This document shows, in pieces, positions 3,074 to 26,918 of a stretch of DNA of 33,165 nucleotides (position 1 is the stretch's first letter; each line of letters opens with the position of its first letter). A model generated the notes under the pieces. The model made no database searches. It saw only the letters and a list, made by a program, of their open reading frames with translations, and was not told the DNA's origin. A program made the translations under genes and the position numbers. Origin of the DNA: an uncultured virus (IMG/VR IMGVR_UViG_3300030099_003764) (lineage: Duplodnaviria > Heunggongvirae > Uroviricota > Caudoviricetes); IMG/VR virus record IMGVR_UViG_3300030099_003764; one strand, 5' to 3'.

Positions 3074-3323
3074 GTTGGGAAGACATAATTAAGAACGAAG
3101 AAAAAGTATCTAATTTTATTAAACTAGCAAAAAATAATATGGACAAGTTTAATGAAGATGAGAAAATAATGGTTAACTATTTAATTAATTTTTTAGAAGA
3201 TAAATATGACAGAAACATATTTGAAGCACTAAGGTTTGAATTAAAGAAAAAAGACCTAATTCATGCTAAATCAAGATTTTTAATGAAGGAGAAATTACAA
3301 TGAGTTGGAAAGATATTATTAAA
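3053..3323 (+). repeat. Direct repeat pair (3053-3093 and 3283-3323) spanning gene end and tag
   Basis: atgcaggagaaactacaatgagttgggaagacataattaag vs atgaaggagaaattacaatgagttggaaagatattattaaa; 35/41 identical by hand. Confidence 0.85.
3070..3303 (+). CDS. Small hypothetical protein with MSWEDIIK tag
   Basis: ATGA overlaps at both ends; flanked by 41-nt direct repeats. Confidence 0.75.
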   Translation: MSWEDIIKNEEKVSNFIKLAKNNMDKFNEDEKIMVNYLINFLEDKYDRNIFEALRFELKKKDLIHAKSRFLMKEKLQ

Positions 3324-3572
3324 CAAGTTAATAAAGATAAAATAAAAGAGATTAGAGAGTTTCTTTTTGCTTATGGGCACCCCGATGATGATGAAGAAGC
3401 ATTAGAAATGGGTAAAAAAATAGACGAGGCTATGGAAGATATGCCAAGAAGAAAAGGCTTTCATAGACTTGCTCACAAACCACCACGCTCACATAAAGAT
3501 AAGAAAACAAGGGATAAATATTGGCAAATAATTCATGAATATTTAGATGCGTTAGAAGGGGAATTACAATAG
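3300..3572 (+). CDS. Small hypothetical protein with MSWKDIIK tag
   Basis: ATGA overlap; GGAG RBS. Confidence 0.75.
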   Translation: MSWKDIIKQVNKDKIKEIREFLFAYGHPDDDEEALEMGKKIDEAMEDMPRRKGFHRLAHKPPRSHKDKKTRDKYWQIIHEYLDALEGELQ

Positions 3573-8744: not shown

Positions 8745-9197
8745 ATGAGTTGGTGGAGTATAATAAAAATACTAAATGAACAAGGCGAGAACTTGATTGT
8801 AGAAGATGTTGATAAGTTTGTTGAAAGACTAAGAGCATCTGTTAGAGCAGTGGGCTTACAATATTTTGGTTCGATAAAAACCCCTGCAAGAGAAGGTGAA
8901 CCGAGAAAGGCTAACATTGTAGTTAAGGAGAGATACATAAGAGATAATCCAGCACTGCTAGAAATTAAGATAAGTGTTAGAAATCCCAACACAAAACAAA
9001 GAGAGTATTTTCAAATCCTAATGGAGGAAAATGATGAAGGTGATTTCTATTATCTAAGGGCTGAAGGGCCAAGCGTATTCCTAACTGAAAGTTCCAAAGT
9101 AAAGGATGAAAGCGCATTAATCATTATGATTTCTGATGCAGTAGAGAGGGTCATTAAAGCCCCAAGAAAGTTTAAGTCAGCATTTAGGAAAGATTAG
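8745..9197 (+). CDS. Hypothetical protein with MSWWSIIK tag
   Basis: AGGTGG RBS directly upstream; precedes terL. Confidence 0.8.
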   Translation: MSWWSIIKILNEQGENLIVEDVDKFVERLRASVRAVGLQYFGSIKTPAREGEPRKANIVVKERYIRDNPALLEIKISVRNPNTKQREYFQILMEENDEGDFYYLRAEGPSVFLTESSKVKDESALIIMISDAVERVIKAPRKFKSAFRKD

Positions 9198-10638: not shown

Positions 10639-11994
10639 ATGACTACTGCTGAAGAATACGAAGAGGCCGAAGAATCAATGGGTCAATTGGCAGAGTTAGC
10701 AAGGCAAGAGGAAGAAGAACGGACTAAAGTTGAACAGGCTTTAGGTACTAAATTAAAAAGCATTAATGATTATGTCATGTCCGACTATGAAGCCATCACT
10801 ACTCTATCTAAGAATCTAAACATTAATGCTACTGATGCGAGAAAGCGTCTTAGCACATTCCCTTCAGAATACATAGTTGATGGACAGACTATTCCCGACT
10901 TGGTAAAGAAGATGCGTAAAGCAAGAAGAAGCCTAAAGGGAGAATCAAGAATAAGAATGTCTAAATCAATTGATACTGTTATTGAGGGATATGGTGAACA
11001 TATTCAAAAGTGCATTGATTCTATTTATTGGATTAGTCCATACAAGGTTCCATTACTTAAAATGAGATTTACAGAAAAGGACTTATCAAAACTCAATAAG
11101 ATTACTGATGTTAAGAAAAGAAGAGTTATTGTTGATTCTCTTTGTAAATTATGGGAAATTGATTTGAAGAAAGAAAATATGGCATATAGTAAAGAATATG
11201 CTAAATTAGAGAAAGATTCAAGAATTGCTAAGAAAGAGTTTAGAGAAGAAATAAAAACTATTACCGACCAATCTTTAATTAAATCAAAGAAAGAAAAGTC
11301 ATTAGACTTTATTATGAAGGCAATATGCGAAAATCCGGGAATTGGATTAGGTCAGATACATGATTCAATGCCGACTAATTTACACAAAATAAACTCAACC
11401 AGCACTATTTCTAAAATGATTAATAAATTAGAAGTAGGTAGTTCTAATGGTGGTTATTACAAATTACCTAATGAATTAAAGAAAAATGTATGGGCTTATA
11501 CTGCCGCATTTATTGATTCAGATGGCTACATTACTATGGATAGAAACCACAATCCAAGAGTAGGTTTAGTAGCAACAGGAGAAAGGGGTAAGGTGTTTAT
11601 GAATGAAATGCACAAGTCTATCGGCTTTGGTAAGTTACACTTAGACCAAAAATCTCCACAGGACACAAGACCGGTAAATCGTCTTAACTTCTATTCACAA
11701 GATGATGTGTATAACCTATTAACAAAATGTTTGCCACACTTTAGAATGAAGAAGGGTAATGCTGAATTGTTGTTGGAATTAATTCGCATGAAGAAGTCAT
11801 ACAAGAAGGCTGATTGGTACAAAGGTAGATGTGAGGAAATATTCAAACTGATGAAGTGGGAAAATCACAAAGACCATGTTGGGTTTGATTTCCTAAAAGA
11901 AGGTATATATGTTGATGATATTGCTAAGTTACAAGGTAATTGTAAAATGAGTCTTATGGATGAGTTAGAAGGTATTGGAGGAATGATAGTATGA
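10639..11994 (+). CDS. Protein with long helical N-terminus, probable winged HTH and C-terminal LAGLIDADG endonuclease domain
   Basis: WAYTAAFIDSDGYI LAGLIDADG motif followed by typical beta-strand pattern and CLPHFRMKK; ICENPGIGLGQIH HTH-like segment. Confidence 0.8.
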   Translation: MTTAEEYEEAEESMGQLAELARQEEEERTKVEQALGTKLKSINDYVMSDYEAITTLSKNLNINATDARKRLSTFPSEYIVDGQTIPDLVKKMRKARRSLKGESRIRMSKSIDTVIEGYGEHIQKCIDSIYWISPYKVPLLKMRFTEKDLSKLNKITDVKKRRVIVDSLCKLWEIDLKKENMAYSKEYAKLEKDSRIAKKEFREEIKTITDQSLIKSKKEKSLDFIMKAICENPGIGLGQIHDSMPTNLHKINSTSTISKMINKLEVGSSNGGYYKLPNELKKNVWAYTAAFIDSDGYITMDRNHNPRVGLVATGERGKVFMNEMHKSIGFGKLHLDQKSPQDTRPVNRLNFYSQDDVYNLLTKCLPHFRMKKGNAELLLELIRMKKSYKKADWYKGRCEEIFKLMKWENHKDHVGFDFLKEGIYVDDIAKLQGNCKMSLMDELEGIGGMIV

Positions 11995-12239
11995 CATGGG
12001 AAGATATTATTCACAAAAAGGGAAAAGCCCGAAGAAAGGCCGGAACCAAAAGAAAAAAGAAGAAGCGTAAATCAACTGTTAATCAAGCAGGTAACTATAC
12101 TAAACCTGCATTAAGAAGAAGAATATTCCTTAGAATAAAAAGAGGCTCAAAAGGCGGTGCATCGGGTCAATGGTCTGCAAGAAAAGCACAAATGTTGGCT
12201 CAAGCGTATAAGAGGGCTGGTGGTGGCTATCGTGATTAA
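11991..12239 (+). CDS. Small basic protein (GQWSARKAQ family, N-terminal half) with MTWEDII tag
   Basis: YTKPALR...KGG.SGQWSARKAQMLAQAYKRAGGGY recalled as a widespread DUF5872-like family. Confidence 0.7.
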   Translation: MTWEDIIHKKGKARRKAGTKRKKKKRKSTVNQAGNYTKPALRRRIFLRIKRGSKGGASGQWSARKAQMLAQAYKRAGGGYRD

Positions 12240-12507
12240 TTGGCGTGATGTTCTCAAAGCCAAATCAAAAAGGCAACAGGACTTAACAACTTGGACTCAA
12301 GAAGAGTGGGGAAGTCAAGAACAACACCGAGCGAAAGCAAAAGGGAAAAAAGCACCATCTAAAACTAAAGGTAGGTATATGCCAAAAGCAACTTATCAAA
12401 GAACAGATAAAAATACATTAGATTATCAAGACAGAAAAAAAAGAAAGGGTCGTAGGAAAGGAAAACAGCATATTCCAACAGGTAAAAAGTTTAGTCAGAA
12501 GGGATGA
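12232..12507 (+). CDS. Small basic protein (WTxEEW...RYMPK, C-terminal half of the same family) with MINWRDVLK tag
   Basis: GTG at 12232 is in frame with ORF 12157..12507 and follows a GGTGGTGG RBS. Confidence 0.7.
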   Translation: MINWRDVLKAKSKRQQDLTTWTQEEWGSQEQHRAKAKGKKAPSKTKGRYMPKATYQRTDKNTLDYQDRKKRKGRRKGKQHIPTGKKFSQKG

Positions 12508-12851
12508 TTATGAAATGGCAAACTCTTCTAAAAAAAGACCCAAAGAAAGGTACGGGTAAAAAACCAAAAGGTTCTGATAGAAGATTATACACTGATGAAA
12601 ACCCAAAAGACACTGTTTCCGTTAAGTTTAAGACCGCAGGTGATGTGAGAGAAACATTCAGTAGTTCAGCATTCAAGTCTAAGCCACATAAAAGACAATC
12701 ACAAATAATCAATTTAGTTGAGCAAAGAGCAAGAGTAGCGGCTAAAAGAGCAAAAAATCCAGAAACAAAAAAGAGATTAAACGCTGCACACAAAGTTGCT
12801 TTAGCAAGAAGAGAATCAAGTAAAAGAAAAACAAAGAGGATGAAGGCATGA
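12504..12851 (+). CDS. Small basic protein with MKWQTLLK tag
   Basis: DPKKGTGKKPKGSDRRLYTDENPKDTV recalled from marine viral hypothetical proteins; start 12504 or 12510. Confidence 0.75.
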   Translation: MIMKWQTLLKKDPKKGTGKKPKGSDRRLYTDENPKDTVSVKFKTAGDVRETFSSSAFKSKPHKRQSQIINLVEQRARVAAKRAKNPETKKRLNAAHKVALARRESSKRKTKRMKA

Positions 12852-13243
12852 ATTGGCAAGATATACTCAAAAAAGAAAAAGCCCACTGCGGTTCAGAAAA
12901 AACAGATGAAGAACCTATCATTGAAAAAATACCGGATTTATCCGGTGATGGTAAAGTAACTCGTAAAGATGTTTTAATCGGTAGAGGCGTATATGATAAG
13001 CAAGGAAATAAAGTCAAGAAGGCTAAAGCCGGAGGAATCAGAGGGCTTATTCTAAGAGAAATACAGAAAGAAGGTGGTGCTTTGGGTTATAGTCATTTAA
13101 ATAAAAAATTCAAACAACTTAACCCTTCTCAAATAAAAGGCGAAGTAATGGCTTTAGTCGAGGACGGAAAAGCATACATTCACGGAGATGGAGATATTAT
13201 CTCTATTAAGAAACCAAGTCGAGGGAGAGGATTTACTGCATGA
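12848..13243 (+). CDS. Hypothetical protein with EF-hand/dockerin-like loop and MNWQDILK tag
   Basis: DLSGDGKVTRKD is a DxxxDGxVxxxD Ca-binding-like loop; C-terminal possible winged helix. Confidence 0.7.
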   Translation: MNWQDILKKEKAHCGSEKTDEEPIIEKIPDLSGDGKVTRKDVLIGRGVYDKQGNKVKKAKAGGIRGLILREIQKEGGALGYSHLNKKFKQLNPSQIKGEVMALVEDGKAYIHGDGDIISIKKPSRGRGFTA

Positions 13244-13641
13244 GTTGGGAAATAATTTTGAAACAATTGGCTTGTCCAAGAGCAACCCAAGATTTAATGC
13301 TTAATACTAAAAATAGAGATGCGGCAGTTAAAAATCCTAGCATTAGATATGGGCCGCTTAATCTTGAAGATGAGGAATATTGGGAAAAATATGCTAAAAG
13401 ATGGAATACTACTGCTGATGTAGCAAAAGAATCTAATTGTAGTAATTGTATTGCATTCGACATATCTCCGAGAATGGATGAGTGTATGCCTTTAACTACT
13501 GATGAAGATGGGCGTTTAGGATATTGTTGGATGCACCATTTCAAGTGTCATTCTGCTAGAACTTGTTATACTTGGGCTAAAGGTGGCCCAATTGATGATG
13601 ATAAAACTTCTAAAGAAAATCAAATGAGGGGAGAAAAGTGA
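13240..13641 (+). CDS. Cys-rich metal-binding protein with MSWEIILK tag
   Basis: CSNC..FD..GYC..C..C..W pattern (HiPIP-like Cys spacing). Confidence 0.7.
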   Translation: MSWEIILKQLACPRATQDLMLNTKNRDAAVKNPSIRYGPLNLEDEEYWEKYAKRWNTTADVAKESNCSNCIAFDISPRMDECMPLTTDEDGRLGYCWMHHFKCHSARTCYTWAKGGPIDDDKTSKENQMRGEK

Positions 13642-13925
13642 TTGAATGGCAAGAAATCCTAAAGAAAAAAAAGCCATTCAAGGGTTATAATAAAAAGATT
13701 CATGCAAGAACAGGTGGACTAAGTGCTAAAGGTCGTGCTAAGTTTAAGCGTGAACAAGGCTCTAATCTAAAAGCCCCTGTTACTACTAAACCAAGTAAAT
13801 TGAAGCGTGGTAGTAAAGCCGCTAAAAGACGCAAATCTTTCTGTGCAAGGTCAAGAGGATTTAAGCGTGATGATGGGACATACAGTGAAAAAGCAAAAGC
13901 CGCTAGAAGAAGGTGGAATTGTTAA
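13638..13925 (+). CDS. Small very basic protein with MIEWQEILK tag
   Basis: GGLSAKGR..GSNLKAPV..RRKSFCAR..RRWNC, recalled as a common marine phage family (DUF6321-like). Confidence 0.7.
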   Translation: MIEWQEILKKKKPFKGYNKKIHARTGGLSAKGRAKFKREQGSNLKAPVTTKPSKLKRGSKAAKRRKSFCARSRGFKRDDGTYSEKAKAARRRWNC

Positions 13926-14392
13926 TGTGGAGAGATTTGCTAAAGGCTGATTTTGTTGTTAAAACAGATTACCCCGAAGCAGATTTTTGGCTACAAAAAA
14001 GAGGCTCTAAACAGAATGTTGGAAAGCCCATGCGAAAGTTTAGTGAGATACAAGGCCCATATAACATAGGAATTAAGGTTCCCAAAGGAATGAATAAGGA
14101 ATATGTTTATTCACAATTAGCCTCTTTATACAGAAAAGGATATTGGGAAAGACATTCTTATGGTTCCCTTCCTTTACAACACATTAGAATAGATGATGTT
14201 AAGAAGATTTTAGAATCGTTTGAAGATAAAGCAGATTACAAAGATGTTACATCAGATAAAATAGAAAAGATATATGATAAGTGGTTAAAAGATTCTAAAC
14301 TAATCAGTGAATTACTAATGTCAAGTAACTCTTTAATTAGAGAAGGTCGAGAAATTAAAAGGTTCTTACAAAAAATGGAGGGGATGAGATGA
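13925..14392 (+). CDS. Protein with HsdS/TRD-like small domain and MWRDLLK tag
   Basis: ATG 13925 overlaps upstream TAA; PEADFWLQKRGS..VGKP..IGIKV..EYVY..GSLPLQHIRIDDVKKI resembles a type I RM specificity-domain fragment. Confidence 0.55.
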   Translation: MWRDLLKADFVVKTDYPEADFWLQKRGSKQNVGKPMRKFSEIQGPYNIGIKVPKGMNKEYVYSQLASLYRKGYWERHSYGSLPLQHIRIDDVKKILESFEDKADYKDVTSDKIEKIYDKWLKDSKLISELLMSSNSLIREGREIKRFLQKMEGMR

Positions 14393-14533: not shown

Positions 14534-16171
14534 ATGGTTGAAAAAAAGCGTAGATTTTCTTTTACTAATTTATTTAGGCGTTCCACTCCTAAACCTGCTG
14601 ATAGGCAGATATACAACATGGGTATTCAAGAAAGACAGAATAACTACATGATGACAGCACCTATTATTTATTCTATGGTTCAACAATCCGTTATCGTTAG
14701 AACCTGTATTACTCAATTGAAACAGGAAGTATATAGAAGAGGATATACTTGGGAAAAGGCCTTTGAGTCTATTTGTAATAATTGTGGAAAAAAGCACCAA
14801 AGACCTGTTGCCGCATGTTCAAGATGTGGTTCAGAAGATTTGAAATTACCTGATGTAAAACAATTAGAATACGCTGAGAAGTTTTTGGAGGGGTATGTCA
14901 ATCCATCAGAACAGTTATTCATTGATGTGCTGAAGGAATTAGAAGATGATTTGAATACTATGGATGATGCGTACATTGTTCTTGTTAAGGAATACTTCAT
15001 TGATGGTAACGGGCAAATAAGAATGCACCGTATCAAAGAGATATTCAGAGGCGACCCTGTAACTATGTTCATCTATGCAGACGAAGATGGTGTAAAGGGA
15101 ACCAAAGGATTTACTTGTATTAATCATAGAGATGTTCTACATACAGAACCACACCATAATTGCGAACATTGTGGTGGAGAATTGTACCCTGTTCATTATG
15201 TCAATAGAGCAAATGGTGACGACCAATACTTCTTAGAGGGAGAAGTATTACATTTTAGTAAATATAGCCCAAGTAGGCTCTATGGTTTCTCTCCTGTTAT
15301 CACACTATACAATCACATTATGACTCTTATTGCTATGGAGAATTATGTCAATTCAGCATATACTAAGAGTAGAATGCCAAGAGGATTGTTAGCAGTACAA
15401 ACACGCAACATGGACTCAATGAGAGCATTTTGGCGTGGTGTAAAAGAGAAAATGGAATCAGACCCACACTTTATTCCTGTTATGGGTATTGAAGCAGAGG
15501 GCGGTAAAGGTGCCGTAGAGTGGATTAAGTTTATGGATAGTTTAAAGGAAATGGATTACATTTCTGTAAAGGATGATTTGAGAGATAGGATTTCAGCATT
15601 CTATGGTGTGAGTAAAGTATTCATGGCTGACAATACTACAAGTGGCGGTTTGAATAATGAAGGTATGCAAATCTTAGTTACTAATCGTGCAGTACAAATG
15701 GCTCAGAATGTGTATAATAATTATGTATTCCCATACTTAGTTAAGCAGTTTGGAATTACAGATTGGGTTCTCAAACTACCGCCATCTGAAGAAGAAGATG
15801 AAATCGCTGAGTTGAGAAAAAGAGAGATAGAAGTCAATATTGCCGCTTCAATTAAAAACTTAGGCTTTGAAGTAGAAATGGATGAAGATGGTAACTTTAC
15901 CTTTGAAAAACCAGAACCGGTTGAACAAGAACAACCTGTTGAAGAAGGTGAAGTAGAGAATGACCCATTAGCAGGTTCTAATTTAGACCAAAGGGATTTA
16001 GATGAACAAGCAAGACAATTTGCTCAAGGTGGAGGAAAACCACAGGAAAACCCACCAGCCACAAGGAATAAAGCCCGAAACGAAGTAGGGCCGGATAAGC
16101 GTATGACAGGATTACCAGCAGAAGCAGGTAATCAAAATGTAGATTCAAGAACCGAAAGGAGAGTTGGTTGA
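14534..16171 (+). CDS. Portal protein with Zn-ribbon insertions
   Basis: HK97-like portal features (EVLHFSKYSPSRLYGFSPV, MPRGLL, DMDY/EMDY..RDRISAFYGV); CNNC/CSRC and CINH/CEHC inserts; position between terL and protease. Confidence 0.88.
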   Translation: MVEKKRRFSFTNLFRRSTPKPADRQIYNMGIQERQNNYMMTAPIIYSMVQQSVIVRTCITQLKQEVYRRGYTWEKAFESICNNCGKKHQRPVAACSRCGSEDLKLPDVKQLEYAEKFLEGYVNPSEQLFIDVLKELEDDLNTMDDAYIVLVKEYFIDGNGQIRMHRIKEIFRGDPVTMFIYADEDGVKGTKGFTCINHRDVLHTEPHHNCEHCGGELYPVHYVNRANGDDQYFLEGEVLHFSKYSPSRLYGFSPVITLYNHIMTLIAMENYVNSAYTKSRMPRGLLAVQTRNMDSMRAFWRGVKEKMESDPHFIPVMGIEAEGGKGAVEWIKFMDSLKEMDYISVKDDLRDRISAFYGVSKVFMADNTTSGGLNNEGMQILVTNRAVQMAQNVYNNYVFPYLVKQFGITDWVLKLPPSEEEDEIAELRKREIEVNIAASIKNLGFEVEMDEDGNFTFEKPEPVEQEQPVEEGEVENDPLAGSNLDQRDLDEQARQFAQGGGKPQENPPATRNKARNEVGPDKRMTGLPAEAGNQNVDSRTERRVG

Positions 16172-16172
16172 T

Positions 16173-16367
16173 ATGACTTGGGATTATTACGATATTAAGA
16201 AAAAACCTGATAATATTACAGGTGTAGAAATAAGAAGAAGAATGAATGCTGAAAGTTATAAAAAATTAGTGGCATGGTTGCAGAAAAATTACAATAAAAT
16301 ATTTGAAGAATATATGGATGAACAGTTAGAAAACAGGAAAAAAGTTACCGAAACCTACAAGGAGTGA
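16173..16367 (+). CDS. Small hypothetical protein with variant MTWDYYDIK tag
   Basis: ATG 16173 immediately after portal stop. Confidence 0.65.
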   Translation: MTWDYYDIKKKPDNITGVEIRRRMNAESYKKLVAWLQKNYNKIFEEYMDEQLENRKKVTETYKE

Positions 16368-19600: not shown

Positions 19601-20536
19601 ATTCTCAAAAACTTAGAGAAAGAAGTTACCTATGAAGGACAGGAAATGACTATACTTGAAGTAATTAATAGAATATCAAGAGGCACTTTCAAATACAAAG
19701 CCGGTAGAGTAGATTCTGACACGAAGGATGATGTGAGAGAACAATTTGGAAAACTTGTTGAAGAAGCAATTAAGAATGTTAAGGTAAAGAAATCCGAACA
19801 ATTCAGAATACCTAAGTTTTTCAAGTCACGAATGAAAGAAGATACTAAAGTTTTCAGAAATGATTTAATGAATATATTTTCTGGTTCAAAGGTAAAAACA
19901 GATGTATCTGGTGTTGGCTCTTTATCTAAGTTTTTTGAGAAAGAAGTAGTAAAAGTAAGTAAAGGAGTCTATGAAATCAATACTAAAATTATTCTTAGTG
20001 TAGACGAAAGAATAAAAGAAATAGGCGACATTTACGAACAAATGAATGCCACTGACAAAATTGAGCGTAAAGAAAAAGATATTGATTCATTAGTAGAAGA
20101 AAAAGAATTAGAACTTTTAATTTACGGAGATAAACAAAAAAGAATAGAAAGATTGGTTCGTGCGCTCAATAGACTTAGAGAAGAACTCACAGTCGGAAAA
20201 GACACTAAAATAAGACTTTTGGGAGAAGCCGCAGAAAAAATAAATGAAAAGATTGATTCAATGGTTGAATTAGAAGAGGGTAGTCCTAAATATGAAGCCA
20301 CAAAGTTTGTCGTCAATTTTATGCAAGATTCTGCTGATAGGATTCAAGAAGAAATTAAAGAAATACAAAGCAAAGAAGGCGAAGAACAAAAATTACTTGA
20401 CAAAATAGAGAAAGTGAGAAAGGAACAAGAAGAAGAACTTGCCTTATTTAGAAGAATGGTAGAAGCAAAAAGAGAAGGCAGACTCAAACAGGGTAAAGGA
20501 AGAATTACAATAAAACCGAAGGAGGAAAAGGAATGA
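16610..20536 (+). CDS. Very large K/E/R-rich coiled-coil protein (1308 aa)
   Basis: Long ORF with AGGTGAT RBS; starts MSSWKSII. Confidence 0.85.
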   Translation: MSSWKSIIAGRENDVYFLLKELVENREIAKAIGDFKGLSGPKKEGEDEEDERSLEERLKDFSKDRAEQRTKFEQQLQSLERGIKNNQPDLQDIVNEIFFSDMIVGTPTSETKGINYLIEPKTIETQTINTSGVSFQENKFKKRIKETLKDLYRSSDERKDEEFSITDKQFDLFAEENFENIKHHISRGLAISLGLRASRKDLELSEKEAEKEVESRKKYLEKTKTEKKEKSAKLEKQIKALEKLAKERGKLKADKITSVVPIINATYENEVDNEKIADILDLPKKPIFDSAEEANDFIVSFNKVQRKRNQLQARLKKIKDKKMSKGKYEEKDEFAQRKRKRDRSISGMEKAITRLNKTLKEEGVKVTQIKQFRDLLSMNLDSKIKSLKGKLDGLSQEVELAERRVELAVLRAASVIDEDDPLYNKKRQEMFKNLERLGKDIKVDLSKKGIEDRIKQENLKAFNSDKKKALETFDKTTKVIEERIKASFKQKEKDKLITEGKEERPQAKESVVFSEIFSEIEGKTALKTIKELLNEEGFKQYLSILDKKIVIEPKIEEELGENFKGRSKLVTPKIGDFKRMTRKEKNDFVLDNMPKFQGYYTRLMGALNDLQAKTPTEDKKITKIKKLMESMQGRFKRLSRTERKERAKKSPIRYGADRSDDKRTMKEKLAEEEKQIYQYFFENAKGIKNEKQLLTSEVNRPTITFWKDLSSNMDAFAKATSNYQNKDDFVKAIQSFIGKNNLHVIDILNLMGTKRNNKIRSDILTSIQSNKLYQDLTRAKKEAPTRYKKETLEQKIARQKREGVPESKIKPKDPFKERRKALAEKRKEKESMLKSVPSESEVLQRAAKEKYPDKDIKDLTTDQIRELIAGLSEIDKKKYFGRRRKGDSEEGRYSPVDFRTEEQSKESKEKRMLDWGKLKLEDAVKLAKKIRGAEDSDDFDTSKKTLHTLFTKEKSKEDKNRFFAFVDVNRKAEVVVRGFSYKKGDKGYNEIEKAADSILKNLEKEVTYEGQEMTILEVINRISRGTFKYKAGRVDSDTKDDVREQFGKLVEEAIKNVKVKKSEQFRIPKFFKSRMKEDTKVFRNDLMNIFSGSKVKTDVSGVGSLSKFFEKEVVKVSKGVYEINTKIILSVDERIKEIGDIYEQMNATDKIERKEKDIDSLVEEKELELLIYGDKQKRIERLVRALNRLREELTVGKDTKIRLLGEAAEKINEKIDSMVELEEGSPKYEATKFVVNFMQDSADRIQEEIKEIQSKEGEEQKLLDKIEKVRKEQEEELALFRRMVEAKREGRLKQGKGRITIKPKEEKE

Positions 20537-20895
20537 CATGGGATTTTTATGATAGTGGCGAAGAGTTTATTCTAAAAGCCAAAAAAGAAGAACCAAAAAC
20601 TATTCTAAATAGTTTAGATAAAAAGCAAACAAAGAGGCTCAAAAAGACATTACAGGCGGCTGAACCAACGGAGTTTTTCGGCCAAGACTTTACAAAGATG
20701 GGTGACTTGATTGATGTTCTAAAAGACTTAGACTTGATGAAGTCCGACAAGAAACTTAGTAAGCGTATAAAAAGTATGGATGAACGCAATCTTGATATTG
20801 TAGCCACTGCTACGAAACTTCGTAAGGACTACGAAACCTTGTATCGACAACTTCGGGAAATGGTATATCCAAAGAAAAAGGGTGATTCGGAATGA
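20533..20895 (+). CDS. Hypothetical helical protein (MTWDFYD...FILKA)
   Basis: GGAGG RBS; ATGA overlap. Confidence 0.8.
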   Translation: MTWDFYDSGEEFILKAKKEEPKTILNSLDKKQTKRLKKTLQAAEPTEFFGQDFTKMGDLIDVLKDLDLMKSDKKLSKRIKSMDERNLDIVATATKLRKDYETLYRQLREMVYPKKKGDSE

Positions 20896-21116
20896 CTTGG
20901 TGGAACATAATCAAAGCAAAAGGAATAAGCAGTGGTGGTGGAAAAAAGTCACCACCGAGAAAGCCATCTAAGAAAAAAGGCGGTAGAACCATACAAGGCG
21001 GTACTTACGAAGCGGCTATGAATAATCTATCATTAGAATATTCTAAAGGTAAAATGACTGTTAATCAGTATGTTCGTGAAAAGAAAAAGATTCAAAAGAA
21101 GTTTGGGAAGGATTAA
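20892..21116 (+). CDS. Small basic protein with MTWWNIIK tag
   Basis: GGGTGAT RBS; ATGA overlap. Confidence 0.75.
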   Translation: MTWWNIIKAKGISSGGGKKSPPRKPSKKKGGRTIQGGTYEAAMNNLSLEYSKGKMTVNQYVREKKKIQKKFGKD

Positions 21117-21118
21117 AA

Positions 21119-21358
21119 ATGACAGAAGTGAATGAAGATGTATTGGCTATACTAAAAGCCTTAACAGAAAAAATAGAACAGTTAGAACAAACTGTTTATC
21201 ATAAGGATAATCTATTGATGAAGTCTGGTCTTGTTGTAGCAACAAGTCCAAGCCCAAAGATGAATAATTCTATTGGCGGTGCTTCTGCTATTGGAGATAT
21301 TTCAAGTATGGAATGGTCTGATATTCATAAAATGGTTGAAAAGATAGGTGGACAATAA
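21119..21358 (+). CDS. Small scaffold-like protein sharing its C-terminal motif with the protease/scaffold
   Basis: Coiled-coil N-terminus; ends DISSMEWSDIHKMVEKI versus scaffold DIASMDWSDIHKMVNNI. Confidence 0.75.
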   Translation: MTEVNEDVLAILKALTEKIEQLEQTVYHKDNLLMKSGLVVATSPSPKMNNSIGGASAIGDISSMEWSDIHKMVEKIGGQ

Positions 21359-21747
21359 TGCCGGAAAGAGTAACAAAAGAGGAAAGGCTTGTTAGTCTTG
21401 CTATTGAAAAAGCAAGAAAGGTAAAGCAAGAACTGAATGCTAAAAATGTAGAACCTACTCAAGTTAGGGTTGTAGAAACCGACCCCGAACCTGTAAAGAT
21501 AAAGAGGCCTAAAGCAGTTAATGTAAAGGTTGAGAATCAAACTCAGGATAAAGAAGGATATGGTCTTGGTGGAGAAACTACTGAGCATAAAATCAAGAAA
21601 TCAGCACTTCAAGGAATGCTTGCTGATATTAATGGTATGTGTTCAAGGATTCAAAGTGTGGCAAAACAATATGCTAGTGATAATAATAGAAACGCATTAA
21701 AGCCTATGATGGAAGATTTGTCGGATATTGTTAGAATGTATAAGTGA
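21358..21747 (+). CDS. Hypothetical protein
   Basis: TAATG overlap; AGGTGG RBS. Confidence 0.75.
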   Translation: MPERVTKEERLVSLAIEKARKVKQELNAKNVEPTQVRVVETDPEPVKIKRPKAVNVKVENQTQDKEGYGLGGETTEHKIKKSALQGMLADINGMCSRIQSVAKQYASDNNRNALKPMMEDLSDIVRMYK

Positions 21748-21753
21748 TGCTCT

Positions 21754-24291
21754 ATGCCTAAAACCGGCCTTCTATTTGAGAAGGGTAAAGCCTCTAATGA
21801 AATCCTTCAATGTTTTGAAAGGGTAAGAGTCGCTTATCTTTCTGCAAGAACCGACCCTAAAGAGTACGGTTCAAAATGGAGAAGTGCCGTTGAATATCTT
21901 AGAGATAACTACGATGATTCAGACGAGTTTGGAGAAGAGTTGAAAAAGTACATTGATTCTAAAGACTTAGAAAATGAAGATGCTTTAGATGTTACCACCA
22001 CTATTGCTGAAAAGGTGTACGAATCAGTAAAAAGAATGAGATATGCTTCTGAGCAAGTTTCTGACCCTTTCTCTAAAAACTTCAAGGATAATGTTCTTGA
22101 AGCATTATTAGAATCACCTGAAACAATGGTTAAATTTGTGCATTATGCTATGAGAAATGACAATAAGGCACTTAATCCATCCATTTACAGCGTTAAAGAC
22201 ATGGAACCTGACACCATTACAGACGGTCTTATGGGTCTTGACCTACAAGTGGAGGATATACCCCTGTATATTATCGAACACTATGGGGATGGAAAAGACT
22301 CAAAGAAGGTAGAAAAGAAAGTAAAGGCCGCACTTAATATGTTGGAGTTACTCTTCTTTTCTAAACATAGCGAAGAAGAATGGGAAGAGTTAGAGGATAT
22401 TGATATGGAATCTGAAACTCCCAAAAAGATGATACAGAAGTCTGAAACACAGAAGGGCAAAACTGATTTCATAACGCCTAACAAACCTATGTATAGAATA
22501 TTTGATATTGATGATATTAATGAATTAAAAGGATTTAGTGGAGAATGGGTTGTTCAAGAAAAGTATGATGGTATGAGAATACAACTGCATAAAATAGATG
22601 ATAACATTAAGGTATATTCTTACAATGAAAAGGACATCACGGATAAATGTAAAAACATAGTGGATGCTCTAAAGAAGAAGCATTTCGGTGATTGCATATT
22701 AGATGGTGAATTGATATTGTTTAATGGTGAAGATGCACTTCATAGAGCAGATACAATTGCTCATGTGTTTAAGGACAAATATCCTGATGCTAAACTAAAA
22801 GCACATATGTTTGACATTATGCGACACAATGAGAAGTCTGTTGCTGATGAACCGTTAAGTGATAGAATGAATATTATGTTCAATAATTATTCTGTTCATT
22901 CAAGTGAATACTTAAACTTCCCTTCAAAGAAAGATACTCGTATGGCTGATTCAATTAAGGACATAGAAAACTATTCAAAAGAAATCATGGATATGCCAAC
23001 TTCTGAAGGTGTAGTAATTAAGGATGCTACTTCTACTTATTATATAGGAACACGAAAGAATCCTAAATGGATTAAGTGGAAAAAGTTTGTTGATTTAGAT
23101 GTTATTGTATTAGATAAGAAGAGAACAAAGAGCAATCTTTATTCCTATACTCTTGGTATTGATATTGGCCCCACTGAAGAAGAGGCTAAACATATTAAAG
23201 AATTAGATGGCAAAAAGTACATGAATGTTGGAAAGGCACTCAATACTAAAATTGCCGTTGATGTCGGAGATATTATTAGAGTTAAAGTAGATGAAGTAAA
23301 GAAGAAAGGAGAAGTATATTCCCTTTATTCAGCAAAAGTAATAGAAGTACCGGAGGTTGAAATGCCGGATAAATTAGTCACATTAGAGATGCTATCAAAA
23401 GATACAAAGAAATCTCTTAATTATGATGTGAAAGCATTAGAGAAAGGAGTATCTATTACTGATTATATTCATGGTGAAGCGTCTGTTATCATTAAAGGAG
23501 ATATGGATGGCTTTACTATTTATGGTTTTGATGAACATAACTTAATGGCTAAGAATGCGCTTGCTGATTTAGACCTATGGAAAAATCAAGCAGAAGAAAT
23601 AATGAAAACTAAACAGTCAAGATTAACTGTTGCTACATTTCAATTCCTAAAAGAAAAAGGGCCAAAGACACCAAAAGAAGTACACTTATTCCTAAAGAAG
23701 AATCATGCAGATATTTACGAAGATATATTAGAAAGTAAATTAGCAAGGGTACAGAAATGGATGAACATGAGAGATGGTATCACTTATGATAAAAAAGAAA
23801 AGAAATTAATGGCTGACCCTGACAAGATTATGATGGATGATGATATTAAAAAATATAAAACTCCTAAAGAATACCAAGAAGGTAATTTCAAAATATACTT
23901 GAGGGATGATGAAAACCTAAACTTAGTCATTAAGTTAGAAGATGAAACTATTAATTGGCTTATTGATTTAGAAAAAGACGATGATATTTTCAGATTATTT
24001 GGAAAGGCTAACAAATACCCTGCTCAAGTAGCACAGAACATATCTAAGAAGAAGGTTATTGATTCCGGCAAAATCAGATTAGGTGTTCAGAAAACAGGCT
24101 ACCATGAATACTTCTTAGAGGGTAATAAGTTTGAAACTAAGATGCACTTCAGAGTGATTGATACTGATGATAAGACTATGTGGTTAGCATGGACGGGCTA
24201 TAAACAGAAACCTGCTGATAAAGAAGGCGATTCCGGTTTATGGAATATCTATGAAGATAGGTACTCTAAACTGCCATTACCGGAAAAATAA
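21754..24291 (+). CDS. lig: ATP-dependent DNA ligase with extra N- and C-terminal domains
   Basis: Motif I VVQEKYDGMR, III ILDGEL, IIIa MFDIM, IV EGVVIK, V WIKWKK, then OB fold. Confidence 0.92.
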   Translation: MPKTGLLFEKGKASNEILQCFERVRVAYLSARTDPKEYGSKWRSAVEYLRDNYDDSDEFGEELKKYIDSKDLENEDALDVTTTIAEKVYESVKRMRYASEQVSDPFSKNFKDNVLEALLESPETMVKFVHYAMRNDNKALNPSIYSVKDMEPDTITDGLMGLDLQVEDIPLYIIEHYGDGKDSKKVEKKVKAALNMLELLFFSKHSEEEWEELEDIDMESETPKKMIQKSETQKGKTDFITPNKPMYRIFDIDDINELKGFSGEWVVQEKYDGMRIQLHKIDDNIKVYSYNEKDITDKCKNIVDALKKKHFGDCILDGELILFNGEDALHRADTIAHVFKDKYPDAKLKAHMFDIMRHNEKSVADEPLSDRMNIMFNNYSVHSSEYLNFPSKKDTRMADSIKDIENYSKEIMDMPTSEGVVIKDATSTYYIGTRKNPKWIKWKKFVDLDVIVLDKKRTKSNLYSYTLGIDIGPTEEEAKHIKELDGKKYMNVGKALNTKIAVDVGDIIRVKVDEVKKKGEVYSLYSAKVIEVPEVEMPDKLVTLEMLSKDTKKSLNYDVKALEKGVSITDYIHGEASVIIKGDMDGFTIYGFDEHNLMAKNALADLDLWKNQAEEIMKTKQSRLTVATFQFLKEKGPKTPKEVHLFLKKNHADIYEDILESKLARVQKWMNMRDGITYDKKEKKLMADPDKIMMDDDIKKYKTPKEYQEGNFKIYLRDDENLNLVIKLEDETINWLIDLEKDDDIFRLFGKANKYPAQVAQNISKKKVIDSGKIRLGVQKTGYHEYFLEGNKFETKMHFRVIDTDDKTMWLAWTGYKQKPADKEGDSGLWNIYEDRYSKLPLPEK

Positions 24292-24295
24292 CCGA

Positions 24296-24308
24296 TTTTA
24301 TTATATAG
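24296..24308 (+). promoter_or_regulatory. Possible archaeal TATA-box promoter for the head genes
   Basis: TTTTATTATATAG in one of the few intergenic gaps, about 30-40 nt upstream of the protease start. Confidence 0.35.
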
Positions 24309-24337
24309 TGAAAGAAGTACAAGGGAGGATGAAAGAC

Positions 24338-25573
24338 ATGAGCATAAGTGTCATGGCAACAAGGAACGATGATTTTCATATTCTAAAAAGCCAAGACGAT
24401 TTGATGATAGGAGGATATGCAAGTATTGAAGTCGTGGATAAACAAAACGATTTAATTACACTAAAAGCATTACAAACCGCCGTAAAAAAATTCATGGAAG
24501 ATAAAAAGTTTAGAAATGTAATGACAAATCATTCAAATGTTCAAGTTGGAGAAGTTGTAGACTCTTATAGAGATAAAAGTGGAAAACTATGGAAATCAGA
24601 AGTAGATGATGTAGGGTTCTTTGTAGTAATTAAATTAAGAGATGACATAGAAAAAGCCAAAGAGGTTGGAAGAGGTATTCGCAAAGGCACATTAAGGTCT
24701 TTTAGCATAGGTGGACAAGCATTACAAAAAGTAAAGAAAAGCCACAGTGAATTAGGGGAGTATAACGAGATAAGCAAATTAGAACTCCATGAAGTAACAA
24801 TATGTGAAAAAGGCATTAATCCCGAAGCGAAGTTTGATATTCTGAAACAAGATATTGGAGATGAAAAAATGAGTGATAAACTTGAAAAGGCACTTGACGA
24901 ACTTGATGTTCTTTTGAAAGAAGTCGAGATGTTGAGAGATAATGAAAAGGGCGACGAGGAAATGGCTGAATACGCCGATGAATCTGAAATGACTGAAATG
25001 ACTGAAATGGCTGATGAAATGATGGAAAGAGCCGATGATGATGATGGTGATGAAGATGCTAAAGAAGCAGGTGACTATGATAAGCAAATGACTTCTGATA
25101 AGGCATACCTTCGTACTCTTGATGGTGCTGGAAACCAAATTGGTGAACCAGCAGATAGAATCGTCATTAACAACGGAAAGCCAACTGCTTCCGATATGCC
25201 TGTTGTAAAGGCATTTGACAACAATGAGTTTGATACACTAAACCTATCAAATGCAAACATTGAGAAGGCTTACGAAGCATTCCGTCAAGAACAACTTGAA
25301 GCACTTGCATACGATAATCTTCGCAAGTCCTTTGAATCTCGATTTGAGAAAGAAGTTGCAAACCGTGAGAATATTCTCGCAAAGTCGCAATATGACGCAC
25401 AGGCTGAAATTGCTTCCATTAAAGAAGAGTTTAGCGAATTGAGAAAATCTCTTACTGCTGAAAAGGAAACTATCCTAAAGGCACAAGAAGAGTCAGTAAT
25501 TAAGATGCCAAGCATTGATGATATTGCATCAATGGATTGGTCTGATATTCACAAAATGGTGAACAATATTTGA
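24338..25573 (+). CDS. Prohead (maturation) protease fused to scaffold domain
   Basis: HK97-type protease motifs IGGYASIEVVDKQND, MTNHSNVQVG, LRSFSIGG, LHEVTICEKGINPEAKF; acidic and coiled-coil C-terminal half; GGAGG at 24324-24328 favours ATG 24338. Confidence 0.9.
   Translation: MSISVMATRNDDFHILKSQDDLMIGGYASIEVVDKQNDLITLKALQTAVKKFMEDKKFRNVMTNHSNVQVGEVVDSYRDKSGKLWKSEVDDVGFFVVIKLRDDIEKAKEVGRGIRKGTLRSFSIGGQALQKVKKSHSELGEYNEISKLELHEVTICEKGINPEAKFDILKQDIGDEKMSDKLEKALDELDVLLKEVEMLRDNEKGDEEMAEYADESEMTEMTEMADEMMERADDDDGDEDAKEAGDYDKQMTSDKAYLRTLDGAGNQIGEPADRIVINNGKPTASDMPVVKAFDNNEFDTLNLSNANIEKAYEAFRQEQLEALAYDNLRKSFESRFEKEVANRENILAKSQYDAQAEIASIKEEFSELRKSLTAEKETILKAQEESVIKMPSIDDIASMDWSDIHKMVNNI
24984..25014 (+). 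repeat. 9-nt tandem repeat CTGAAATGA x3 (EMT-EMT-EMA) in scaffold linker
   Basis: ctgaaatga ctgaaatga ctgaaatgg ctga. Confidence 0.7.
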
Positions 25574-25583
25574 GGTGATTAAG

Positions 25584-26918
25584 ATGGTAGGATATATTAA
25601 CACAATTGCAGATTTAGAAGCACAAACATACGGAATGAATCTACCTGCTGGTAATGCTTTGCTAAAGCAAGCCGGTATGGTTGGTGGAATACACACAGGA
25701 CATGACGGTTCTCCGTCATTTAGCGGTTCAGCCGTTTCTGATGTATCAGCACTATACAATGTCGTTTATGGACAAAAGGTTTGGTCTATGCTAAACCGTG
25801 AAGTAAATGCACTTTCAATGATTTCAAAGAGGCCATACACTTCAAGCGGTTGGAGAGTATTAAAGAGCAGACCTGCTGGTGGTAGCGGTAATCTATTTAC
25901 TGTTGATAAGGCAAATGTTTCCCTAACATTGGGAGAATTGGGTTCAGACACACCAAGAGCAGATTCTATTGGTGGTGTTCCTGAGAATGCTGGTCTTTCA
26001 ACTGCACAAGATGGATTGGGGCCAATTGCACCAACTTATGCTCAATTGAACATGAGTCCAAAAGTCGTTGCACATCAATTTGATTTCAGTGAATTGGCAA
26101 TGGAGATGGCGCAGATTGACGATGGAATTGGCGATATTAGAGCGCAAATGCGTGAAGATATGGGTAAGCACCATGCAGAAGTACAAAACAAGATGCTTGT
26201 TATGCCACTAGAGTTTTATGGTGAAGCGTCACTATTGCCTAACATTGGTAACAACTATACTTCTTTGCTAAAGGTTATTACTTCAAAGGCTGAATTAGAC
26301 CTATTGGATGCACAATCTTCTCTAATGACTGATGGTGCAACTGCAACAAATGTGAGTCACATTTACGGTACAAACCGTGATAGTGCTTCATTCCTTGATG
26401 CTGAAGTAGATGCTGGTTCTACTTATGCGGCAACAGGAGTTAGGTCACTAACTCTAACTTTGCTAAATAACATGGTTCGCAATCTAAGACTTGCTGGTGG
26501 TTCACCAAAGGTTATTCTAACCGGATATGATACCATTCAAGCACTTGCAGACCTATTGCAAAGCCAAGAGAGATTTATGGATAGAAAGGAAATTGTTCCA
26601 ACAGTGAACGGTGTTCGTGGAACAAAGGGTCAAGAAGTCGGATTTAGAGTAGCAACATACTACGACATTCCGCTAATTCCTGTAAAGGACATGACTACTA
26701 CCGGACTTGCTTCAACAAAACTATCAGACCTATTGTTCCTTGATACAGACCATCTATGGCTATCAGTTATGAAGCCAACTCAATACTTTGAAGATGGTAT
26801 TTCTAATGGAAACCCATTCGGTGTAGGAACACTCGGAAACCGTGCATTGTACCGTACTATCGGTGAAGTCGGTTGTTCGTTCTTCAAGGGTCAAGGAAAA
26901 ATTACTAACATACAGTGA
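25584..26918 (+). CDS. Major capsid protein (HK97 fold)
   Basis: Directly after protease; GAGGTGAT RBS at 25572-25579 favours ATG 25584; HK97-like features (EDMGKHHAEVQNKMLV, GGSPKVILT, YYDIPLIP, LLFLDTDHL, GKITNIQ). Confidence 0.9.
   Translation: MVGYINTIADLEAQTYGMNLPAGNALLKQAGMVGGIHTGHDGSPSFSGSAVSDVSALYNVVYGQKVWSMLNREVNALSMISKRPYTSSGWRVLKSRPAGGSGNLFTVDKANVSLTLGELGSDTPRADSIGGVPENAGLSTAQDGLGPIAPTYAQLNMSPKVVAHQFDFSELAMEMAQIDDGIGDIRAQMREDMGKHHAEVQNKMLVMPLEFYGEASLLPNIGNNYTSLLKVITSKAELDLLDAQSSLMTDGATATNVSHIYGTNRDSASFLDAEVDAGSTYAATGVRSLTLTLLNNMVRNLRLAGGSPKVILTGYDTIQALADLLQSQERFMDRKEIVPTVNGVRGTKGQEVGFRVATYYDIPLIPVKDMTTTGLASTKLSDLLFLDTDHLWLSVMKPTQYFEDGISNGNPFGVGTLGNRALYRTIGEVGCSFFKGQGKITNIQ

Follow-up and report, generated by a model that had tools for sequence, protein, structure and literature searches.

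Why should a 79-aa ORF and a prohead protease of the same virus end in the same ten residues? In the window, by which we mean the whole 33,165-nucleotide stretch of DNA analysed here, ORF 21119-21358 ends in ...GDISSMEWSDIHKMVEKIGGQ and ORF 24251-25573 ends in ...DDIASMDWSDIHKMVNNI, each directly before its stop codon, the ending common to the small protein and the S78 protease-scaffold being M-x-W-S-D-I-H-K-M-V. A single matching stretch was found between the two proteins by BLASTP (14/20 aa identical, E 6e-8), which, with the ORF ends, confirms what a first, sequence-only reading had proposed. Its count of 27 identical nucleotides out of 29 between 21308-21336 and 25532-25560 was also correct, and the match is in frame.

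21308..21337, + strand: C-terminal peptide of the small protein, M-E-W-S-D-I-H-K-M-V, short helices predicted at residues 61-63 and 66-76
25532..25561, + strand: C-terminal peptide of the protease-scaffold, M-D-W-S-D-I-H-K-M-V, short helices predicted by AF2 at residues 396-401 and 404-413

A six-frame scan with the pattern [MLIV]xWx[DE][ILVFYM] gave 13 matches, all on the + strand, with 11 at ORF starts and the other two being these C-termini. We then compared codon use in 58 distinct small-protein/scaffold pairs out of 135 loci. Identical residues used the same codon at a frequency of 0.473 within genomes versus 0.46 +/- 0.03 for shuffled partners, and this comparison of within- and between-genome codon identity rules out a DNA-level repeat or recent gene conversion. 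The signal of gene conversion being absent, the likeness is therefore maintained by selection on the peptide.

The virus of the window is a magrovirus, and its hosts are marine Poseidoniales archaea. It encodes a haloarchaeal-like capsid protein, portal and protease, with an ATP-dependent ligase gene within the structural module, the combination that marks the order Magrovirales (viruses of Poseidoniales); this placing of the ligase gene has been described for magroviruses by Philosof et al. 2017 (PMC5434244). The nearest named capsid proteins are those of HVTV-1 and HCTV-1/5, and the major capsid protein (MCP) shares 25-26% identity with those of HVTV-1 and HCTV-1. The protease-scaffold gene lies directly upstream of the capsid gene and adjoins it. 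The module also encodes a giant protein of 1308 aa, which has 1744-1767 aa in a second clade of magroviruses (clade 2, the window belonging to clade 1).

14534..16171, + strand: portal protein (Pfam PF04860, 42.5 bits vs cut-off 39.1)
21119..21358, + strand: small protein ('mini-scaffold'), 79 aa, with N-terminal helix, invariant core, loose linker and C-terminal peptide
21754-24291: ligase domain, between the portal and protease genes
24329..25573, + strand: prohead protease-scaffold fusion (first ATG 24251, likely start 24329)
25584..26918, + strand: MCP, HK97-type (Pfam SU10_MCP, 26.6 bits, cut-off 24.1; phrog_24667, E 8e-25)

The larger of the two proteins had been called a protease/scaffold, and this is borne out by a Pfam match to PF04586 Peptidase_S78 (37.6 bits vs cut-off 21, residues 49-202 of the 440-aa ORF) and by a helical region in its AF2 model. 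PF14550 (27.3 vs 24) and phrog_23555, a head maturation protease family (E 5e-16), also match this ORF. Its likely start is 24329, where the match in the complete relative G003 begins (residue 27 of the longer ORF). Three regions were delimited, with residues counted from that start.

24404..24841, + strand: protease domain, residues 26-171 (AF2 pLDDT 80-90)
24950..25234, + strand: acidic linker, D/E/M-rich and predicted disordered, residues 208-302 (AF2 pLDDT <50)
25250..25492, + strand: helical scaffold region, helices 308-354 and 357-388 (AF2 pLDDT 70-91)

H68, S126 and H154 of the protease, candidate catalytic residues, are invariant across 30 relatives in alignment A6. The scaffold helices conserve ..EKAYxxFxxEQLExxAYDxL.. 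and ..LKxEFxxLRKSL... Among 16 protease-scaffold relatives of 26-40% identity, no column beyond the protease domain is invariant except the Trp of the C-terminal peptide. The AF2 models of this protein and of the small protein are of modest confidence (mean pLDDT 64-65).

Homologues of the small protein formed 133 clusters of 43-139 aa, one of them named Poseidoniales virus YSH_150918 gp097. The small protein matched no Pfam or PHROG family, and a protein atlas look-up returned nameless viral clusters only. The invariant columns of alignment A1 are D30, N31, L32, L33, M34, K35, G37, V39, P44, P46, W66 and I69, most of which fall in one core. In the AF2 model (mean pLDDT 64), a helix, a loose linker and a short helix follow one another.

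21125..21223, + strand: predicted long N-terminal helix, residues 3-35 (AF2 with alignment A1, pLDDT 70-88 per block)
21206..21256, + strand: best-conserved core, D-N-L-L-M-K-S-G-x-V...P-x-P, residues 30-46 (invariant columns of A1)

The counterpart of this core in clade 2 is ..L-[RK]-K-A-G-F-V..T-P.., and we regard residues 30-46 as a candidate second contact surface. When the small-protein family was aligned by hhalign to the last 130 residues of the scaffold, 51 colinear columns, covering the last ~52 scaffold residues, were obtained with a probability of 96% and E 3e-9, a score that came largely from the tail. The 133 clusters show that the 79-aa ORF is a genuine, conserved gene, and it bears the scaffold's tail, as had been read earlier; on this alignment the small protein appears to be a free-standing paralogue of the last ~55 residues of the scaffold. 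A longer, fused form of the small protein was also looked for and discarded, as only 1 of 106 longer candidates matched. In both clades the small-protein gene is placed between those of the portal and the protease; it is about 4.2 kb upstream of the protease gene here, and the distance is 4.4 kb (median) in clade 1 and about 7.5 kb in clade 2.

The co-conservation check that had been proposed across related genomes was carried out. Both proteins with the peptide were present in 124 of 124 clade-1 loci with enough upstream DNA and in 102 of 102 such loci of clade 2, the clade-2 genomes being examined via viral contigs and the metagenome scan using a 5-sequence alignment. The MCPs of clades 1 and 2 are 39% identical, i.e. 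the clades are deep, and the peptide pair is ancient. The tail consensus over both clades is M-x-W-x-[DE]-[IV]-H-x-[LM]-[VA], while the logo of 37 distinct clade-1 small-protein cores reads M-[DE]-W-x-[DE]-I-H-x-[ML]-V. Val occupies position 10 in 15/28 scaffold cores and 34/37 small-protein cores of clade 1, and Ala does so in 30/30 and 33/33 of clade 2; moreover, His is replaced by Asn in both proteins of one clade-1 lineage. By these substitutions, the tails of the two proteins change together between clades.

We also examined how far the peptide extends among proteases of this type. Among the best 150 of 1,163 library matches to the protease-scaffold, 21 carry the strict pattern within the last 25 residues and at least five more carry xWx[DE][IV] there, down to ~35% identity; the peptide is missing from most of these 150. 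The nearest named relatives are without it, the HVTV-1 protease ending ...QQLYDL, and the peptide is therefore not general to this protease type; these two observations rule it out as a general S78-protease feature. The distant protease-scaffolds P0132 and P0164, used as queries in the viral contigs, found no relative, and P0144 found three weak loci only, which were left out of the counts.

A looser copy of the peptide begins ~16 other small proteins of the window. This tag, M-[ST]-W-x-D-I-L-K, was described by a logo built from 291 distinct N-termini, and is a short N-terminal peptide common to otherwise unrelated proteins of one virus.

12..338, + strand: tag ORF, MSWEDIMK
348..716, + strand: tag ORF, MTWFDVVK
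1811..2038, + strand: tag ORF, MSWEDIMK
2043..2411, + strand: tag ORF, MNWEDIIK
3070..3303, + strand: tag ORF, MSWEDIIK
3300..3572, + strand: tag ORF, MSWKDIIK
8745..9197, + strand: looser-tag ORF, MSWWSIIK, directly upstream of the large terminase gene and adjoining it
11991..12239, + strand: basic tag ORF, MTWEDIIH (phrog_17747)
12232..12507, + strand: tag ORF, (GTG)-I-N-W-R-D-V-L-K, start codon uncertain
12510..12851, + strand: basic tag ORF, MKWQTLLK
12848..13243, + strand: tag ORF, MNWQDILK
13240..13641, + strand: tag ORF, MSWEIILK
13638..13925, + strand: basic tag ORF, (GTG)-I-E-W-Q-E-I-L-K (DUF6321 domain)
13925..14392, + strand: tag ORF, MWRDLLK (DUF6943 domain)
16173..16367, + strand: head-module ORF with variant tag MTWDYYDIKK
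20533..20895, + strand: head-module ORF with variant tag MTWDFYD
20892..21116, + strand: basic head-module ORF, MTWWNIIK, directly upstream of the small-protein gene and adjoining it

Trp stands at position 3 in 13/44 first-ATG ORFs on the + strand of the window versus 0/28 on the - strand, and in 17/106 and 16/95 ORFs of two complete relatives. A tag weight matrix trained on other genomes was scored on 8-mers inside the + strand ORFs of the window, and among 10,020 internal 8-mers the two C-termini ranked first (12.9 bits) and second (7.8 bits), in agreement with the earlier remark that the peptide core resembles the tag. A loose regex for tag-like peptides showed no excess at C-termini, with 11 matches in the last 25 residues versus 135 internal ones; this test is uninformative because 104 of the internal matches are one conserved capsid-protein strand, ..DHLWLSVMKPT...

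The sequence-only reading had gone on to propose that the tag mimics or derives from the capsid-binding helix of the scaffold, and this claim holds in part. D-I-x-K is common to the tag and the clade-1 tails, the clade-2 tails having E-V/I-H-x at these positions. Clade 2 is without the tag though its tails are present: W stands at position 3 in 11/1180 + strand versus 21/1170 - strand ORFs, and the strict tag DNA pattern has 0 matches in three near-complete clade-2 genomes compared with 9 and 7 in two clade-1 genomes. The tail, found in both clades, is older than the tag, found in only one, as would be expected if the tag derives from or mimics the tail. On the other side, position 7 is L/I/V in the tag, with His not among the eight commonest residues of 291 tags, whereas it is His in 118/128 distinct tail cores. 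The tag also keeps K8 (81/91) in sublineages whose scaffold ends ...HALT or ...HSLV, and by this measure it does not track changes in the scaffold; because K8 is kept in the tag where the scaffold has lost it, 'one shared pocket' is not established. An initial Met before Ser or Thr is usually removed from N-termini, so the tag would lose its Met, whereas the tails keep an internal one.

From the conservation, paralogy, co-occurrence, order of appearance and resemblance that we observed, we infer the binding steps, the identity of the target and the packaging of tagged proteins as follows. The shared tail would be a short amphipathic docking helix active in head assembly, by which the protease-scaffold and the small protein attach to one site inside the growing procapsid. 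By analogy with solved scaffolds, this site would most likely be the inner face or N-arm of the HK97-type capsid protein, and the MCP is the presumed target, although the target could be another protein. The small protein would be a duplicate of the last ~55 residues of the scaffold, comprising helix, loose linker and docking helix, whose own invariant D-N-L-L-M-K-S-G core probably contacts a second component. It would be a core head-assembly gene product, a second, protease-free scaffold or adaptor. The tag would have arisen later and in the clade of the window alone, as an imitation of positions 1-6 of the docking helix, and it probably recruits a varying set of small proteins to this site or to one nearby. 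We give this reading, a head-assembly docking peptide shared with a second scaffold or adaptor and later imitated by the tag, a probability of roughly 55%. A complex prediction of the MCP (alignment A2, 22 rows) with the small protein (A1, 25 rows) scored 0.00 in both runs, which had no controls and speak neither for nor against binding.

A bolder form of this reading is tentative, and we consider it less likely than not. It supposes that one large magrovirus clade copied the first six residues of the capsid-docking helix of its scaffold to the N-termini, and in a few cases the C-termini, of 16-20 or so fast-changing small proteins in each genome, making a natural multi-cargo loading system. 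The cargo might then enter the head on the scaffold's site and be delivered to the host with the DNA, and the small protein might determine the number of sites that remain for the protease, the scaffold and the cargo.

The peptide might instead dock on the portal or the giant head-module protein, with the scaffold and the small protein helping to start assembly at the portal vertex, and the portal is an alternative candidate target for the peptide or for the core of the small protein. The gene order (portal, small protein, protease) in both clades would suit this, as would the requirement of lambda Nu3 for portal entry into the procapsid (PMC3224144) and the second invariant motif of the small protein. 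However, scaffold tails touch the capsid protein in the solved cases consulted (PMC5644958), and the peptide of a main scaffold would be expected to meet hundreds of capsid subunits, not 12 portal subunits. We consider docking on the portal or the giant protein rather unlikely.

Self-association is a further alternative to docking on the capsid protein: the scaffold and the small protein would form mixed bundles through the shared helix and contact the capsid protein elsewhere. Paralogous helices that change together (V/V vs A/A at position 10) would be expected of a helix-helix pair too, and scaffolding proteins do oligomerise, Nu3 dimers being an example (PMC3224144). The layout argues otherwise, as a short peptide (~10-13 residues) at the extreme end behind a loose linker is that of a docking tail and not of an oligomer core, for which the long upstream helices are better candidates; this alternative has a small chance of being correct. 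Equally improbable is a role for the peptide as a signal that the prohead protease recognises or cleaves, with the small protein as a decoy or regulator of protease activity and the N-terminal tags as removable leaders. The peptide does sit on the protease's own polypeptide, and the capsid-targeting sequence of T4 also permits cutting by the head protease (PMC9958956), but cutting at the very end of the chain would free next to nothing, and a wholly conserved amphipathic face (M, W, I, H, V) would suit binding more than a cut site.

The sequence-only reading had also offered the small ORF as a capsid-size modulator, which would compete with the scaffold as SaPI1 CpmB does. Its size (79 aa vs at least 72 residues), helical N-terminal part and scaffold-like tail are all near those of CpmB. 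But the gene is the virus's own, is present at every locus counted above in two deep clades and shows no satellite sign, and a universal core gene is unlikely to serve the making of smaller heads; this suggestion finds no support and is very unlikely. A chance match or DNA-level repeat, meaningless for the proteins, could be entertained because the peptide is short and AT-rich codon bias raises DNA identity, but it is refuted by the conservation in hundreds of loci of both clades, the matrix ranking of the C-termini and the freely varying codons.

Magroviruses, none of which is in culture, count among the most abundant viruses in surface seawater (PMC5434244). In the article texts searched, we found no published description of the peptide, the small protein or the tag; in the article text of Philosof et al. 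2017 (PMC5434244), 'motif' and 'N-terminal' each occur 0 times. A ten-residue peptide kept across the deepest split of the magroviruses offers a definite starting point for studying the assembly of their heads, and its length suits tests with synthetic peptides and with capsid protein produced in a laboratory host. Should the tag use the same site, this would give a mechanism for loading many proteins into the capsid; it would show a loading signal arising by copying of the scaffold's own docking helix, and would supply a transferable label with which foreign proteins could be packed into the shell of an archaeal virus.

Several known systems share parts of this arrangement. For the N-terminal tag, the closest known match is the capsid-targeting sequences of T4 internal proteins and P1 DarB. 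An N-terminal peptide of T4 IPII/IPIII (~10 residues) or P1 DarB (the first 30) suffices to load proteins, including foreign reporters, into the head, and these proteins are then injected and act against the defences of the host (PMC9958956, PMC9024508). Unlike here, few T4 proteins carry such a sequence, and the cited passages report no likeness to the scaffold tail; the tag of the window begins ~16 ORFs, resembles the scaffold tail and is known from sequence. Encapsulin cargo-loading peptides are 10-20 residues long, sit at protein termini and direct unrelated cargo into an HK97-fold shell as it assembles (PMC11664910). They are short conserved terminal peptides like those described here, but encapsulins are cellular compartments without scaffold, protease or DNA, and the peptide motifs are unrelated.

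For the protease, the S78-type prohead protease gp4 of HK97 reportedly enters the procapsid by means of its own C-terminal tail. A separate scaffold is lacking in HK97, and we know of no second protein in it with the same tail. In lambda, as here, a head protease (C) and a small scaffold (Nu3) have a common C-terminal part and so enter the same procapsid. The lambda small scaffold is said to be made from an internal in-frame start within gene C, whereas the small protein here is a separate upstream gene that has kept only the tail and the outline of the helix before it. Nu3 dimerises, interacts with the capsid protein E and is needed for incorporation of the portal (PMC3224144).

The 80alpha scaffold and SaPI1 CpmB offer a further parallel, a large scaffold and a small helical protein (CpmB, at least 72 residues) whose C-terminal tails are almost identical (Dearborn et al. 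2017, PMC5644958). Their common C-terminal helix-and-hook binds the N-arm of the capsid protein, and CpmB has an N-terminal dimerisation part and a loose middle (PMC5644958). The hook there is R-I-I-K, which is absent here, where the tail is M-x-W-x-D-I-H-x-M-V; the scaffold here is fused to a protease; and binding was solved there, whereas the present pair is known from its sequences. CpmB is encoded by a satellite, competes with the scaffold of the helper and shrinks the head, unlike the universal gene of the virus itself described here. The magrovirus pair shows an arrangement like that of gp46/CpmB but does not belong to that family. By analogy, the small protein may be likened to lambda Nu3 beside protease C in its role, and to CpmB beside the 80alpha scaffold in its shape.

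All long ORFs of the window lie on the + strand, its G+C content is 35%, and the following genes concern us here:

9199-10629, + strand, large terminase (weak match)
14534-16171, + strand, portal
21119-21358, + strand, small protein of 79 aa
21754-24291, + strand, protein of 845 aa, ATP-dependent DNA ligase domain at residues 258-443 (PF01068, 105 bits)
24251-25573, + strand, S78 prohead protease, fused to a helical scaffold (protease-scaffold)
25575-26918, + strand, HK97-type major capsid protein

The closest named relatives of the capsid protein are the haloarchaeal viruses HVTV-1, HCTV-1 and HCTV-5 (25-26% identity), and this capsid, together with a ligase gene located within the structural module, matches the features described for magroviruses by Philosof et al. 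2017, namely kinship to those haloarchaeal virus capsids and a ligase gene in the same position (PMC5434244). The ligase protein is encoded after the small protein and before the protease, and long N- and C-terminal extensions flank its ligase domain. A 451-aa protein (10639-11994) between the terminase and a block of tagged genes matched an HNH endonuclease (phrog_5046, E 4e-5, residues 286-399), which agrees with the nuclease gene inserted in the magrovirus structural module according to the same description. One cluster of small-ORF homologues bears the source name 'Poseidoniales virus YSH_150918 gp097', and the genomes of close relatives are 90-96 kb long, with terminal repeats in one.

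The small protein and the protease-scaffold end in the same Trp peptide (the tail; DISSMEWSDIHKMVEKIGGQ and DIASMDWSDIHKMVNNI, respectively), exactly as the sequence-only reading had written it, and its count of 27/29 identical nucleotides in the tail-coding DNA was reproduced, in frame. Only the tail stretch aligned when the two proteins were compared by BLASTP (14/20, E 6e-8). A six-frame pattern scan of the window gave 13 matches, all on the coding strand, of which 11 were ORF starts and two were these C-termini.

The peptide was also co-conserved across related genomes. It ends every protease-scaffold frame in the 80 closest loci, where the small-ORF frame, wherever it lay within the retrieved DNA, closes with it too. 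In a wider sample obtained with more distant queries (159 loci with both proteins, 65 distinct tail pairs), [ML]-x-W-x-x-[ILV] was kept in both tails of all distinct pairs but one, which has a truncated frame (locus L200). A metagenome scan revealed a second deep clade (clade 2), whose protease and capsid protein are ~40% and 39% identical to those of the window, a member of clade 1. Here the protease-scaffold ends in M-[SDT]-W-[DE]-E-V-H-x-L-A, and the small protein has as its counterpart a 93-124-aa ORF, ~7.5 kb upstream of the protease-scaffold and two genes past the portal, in which the small-protein core is recognised (..L-[RK]-K-A-G-F-V..T-P..) and M-[ST]-W-x-[DE]-I-H-x-[ML]-A is followed by 8-17 further residues. 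Among loci with sufficient upstream DNA, both proteins, each with the peptide, were present in 124/124 of clade 1 and 102/102 of clade 2; these are loci, not independent genomes, some being overlapping cuts of one contig, and they include nine beyond the narrow pattern that were identified by eye. At its N-arm the capsid protein opens with ~17 residues (25584-25634; M-x-G-Y-I-N-T-I-x-D-L-E...Y-G) that are almost invariant in clade 1 and recognisably alike in clade 2 (M-A-R-N-Y-V-R-T-I-T-D-M-E...Y-G; 11362-11415 of locus L265).

A homologue search of 1.84 billion representative proteins returned 1,163 matches. Among the best 150 of these, the last 25 residues carried the strict pattern in 21 and x-W-x-[DE]-[IV] in at least five more, while the others were mostly plain S78 proteases without the peptide; it is likewise absent from the HVTV-1 protease. 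In 16 peptide-bearing proteins with 26-40% identity, the Trp was the sole invariant column outside the protease domain.

We ascribe the likeness of the tails to selection rather than to DNA copying, judging from codons and residues. Position 10 is Val in both proteins in clade 1 and Ala in both in clade 2, and His has changed to Asn in both proteins of one lineage; such joint change between the clades is expected from a common partner. Old gene conversion between the two copies may still have occurred, but the same-codon rate at identical residues showed no excess within genomes (0.473) over shuffled genomes (0.46 +/- 0.03).

The small protein had no Pfam or PHROG family, and its 133 homologous clusters are of similar length, with a longer form in 1/106 candidates. 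Their alignment opens with an N-terminal amphipathic helix, after which come the invariant core D-N-L-L-M-K-S-G-x-V..P-x-P, a linker that varies and lastly the tail. AF2 predicted a helix at 3-35 and, beyond a middle part of low confidence, short helices spanning 61-63 and 66-76 (mean pLDDT 64). In its model of the protease-scaffold, the protease domain is confident and is followed by an acidic disordered stretch, a pair of long helices and, at the terminus, two short ones. When its profile was compared with that of the scaffold's C-terminal 130 residues, residues 14-76 of the small protein were colinear with the last 52 (probability 96%, E 3e-9), much of the score coming from the tail. We read the small protein as a free-standing duplicate of the scaffold's C-terminal module. 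The first ATG of the protease ORF (24251) gives a 41-nt overlap with the ligase gene, and comparison with relatives and a match in the relative genome G003 suggests ATG 24329 (MKDMSISV...) as the true start.

The tag, an N-terminal peptide of ~16 other small window proteins, has Trp at position 3. This residue was found there in 13/44 first-ATG ORFs on the + strand of the window versus 0/28 on the other strand, and in 17/106 and 16/95 versus 1/113 and 2/108 in two complete relatives. From 291 distinct N-termini the logo reads M-[ST]-W-[KDEFQ]-[DE]-[IV]-[LI]-K, and the codons vary freely. The resemblance of tag and tail is real, since a tag matrix trained on other genomes ranked the scaffold tail first and the small-protein tail second of 10,020 internal 8-mers in the window. 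The earlier claim that the tag core matches the scaffold tail holds within limits; position 7 is L/I in tags versus His in 118/128 tail cores, and K8 is kept in tags (81/91) where scaffolds have lost it. Tags were absent from clade 2: the strict tag DNA pattern matched 9 and 7 times in two genomes of clade 1 and 0 times in three of clade 2 (reversed control, 0). As tails occur in both clades and tags in clade 1 only, the tails belong to the core and came first, and the tag was added later within one clade. The broader interpretation, in which the tag mimics or derives from the scaffold's helix, has partial support: the resemblance and the shared scaffold-type module stand, tempered by these systematic differences and the clade-limited tag.

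Three proteins (688-1806, 2417-3073 and 8207-8743) lack the N-terminal tag but have a peptide resembling it at the C-terminus or close to it (PPSETWKEIKKSWMQHLWA, NNPEIWLDIKKKMQEKLQ and YGEREWKNILKRW), and the homologue of the first in the relative genome G002 ends in two copies (TWKDIKKSWQDILRW); the tag may work at either protein end. A loose pattern showed no C-terminal excess of such peptides (11 matches within the last 25 residues versus 135 internal ones, 104 of the latter in a single conserved capsid-protein strand). Two tag ORFs, 12232-12507 and 13638-13925, open GTG-ATT-NNN-TGG, placing Trp at position 3 like other tags only with an ATT start, not GTG; this GTGATT resembles the local ribosome-binding site GGTGAT. 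Several tagged proteins within 11991-14392 and 20892-21116 are very basic (K/R runs), resembling DNA-condensing internal head proteins. Families without an assigned function were matched here:

11991-12239, + strand, phrog_17747 (E 5e-30)
in 13638-13925, + strand, DUF6321 (E 2e-15)
in 13925-14392, + strand, DUF6943 (E 2e-7)

Two large proteins amid the tagged genes, 3581-5635 (684 aa) and 5632-8202 (856 aa), had no Pfam or PHROG family, nor had a K/E-rich 1308-aa protein (16610-20536) that starts MSSWKSII, with Trp at position 4. The latter stands where HVTV-1 has a 1314-aa protein annotated 'zeta toxin' and clade 2 has one of 1744-1767 aa; it may represent a giant protein conserved in the head module.

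Taken together, the best-supported reading, by analogy with known phages, is that the shared tail is a common docking helix, which the protease-scaffold and the small protein would use during head assembly. This makes capsid assembly, and possibly the loading of cargo, directly open to experiment in a virus group that is abundant and uncultured. In phage lambda, protease C and scaffold Nu3 have a nested-gene arrangement. They are similar in role to the magrovirus pair (interactions described in PMC3224144). The closest solved case is that of the 80alpha scaffold and SaPI1 CpmB, which share a C-terminal helix and are described as using a common helix-and-hook on the capsid protein N-arm (PMC5644958), so the N-arm is a candidate contact for the tail peptide; however, that pair has another motif, and CpmB serves a satellite as a competitor. 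For the tag, the nearest known counterparts are the capsid-targeting sequences of T4 and P1 (PMC9958956, PMC9024508) and encapsulin targeting peptides (PMC11664910), as those sources describe them.
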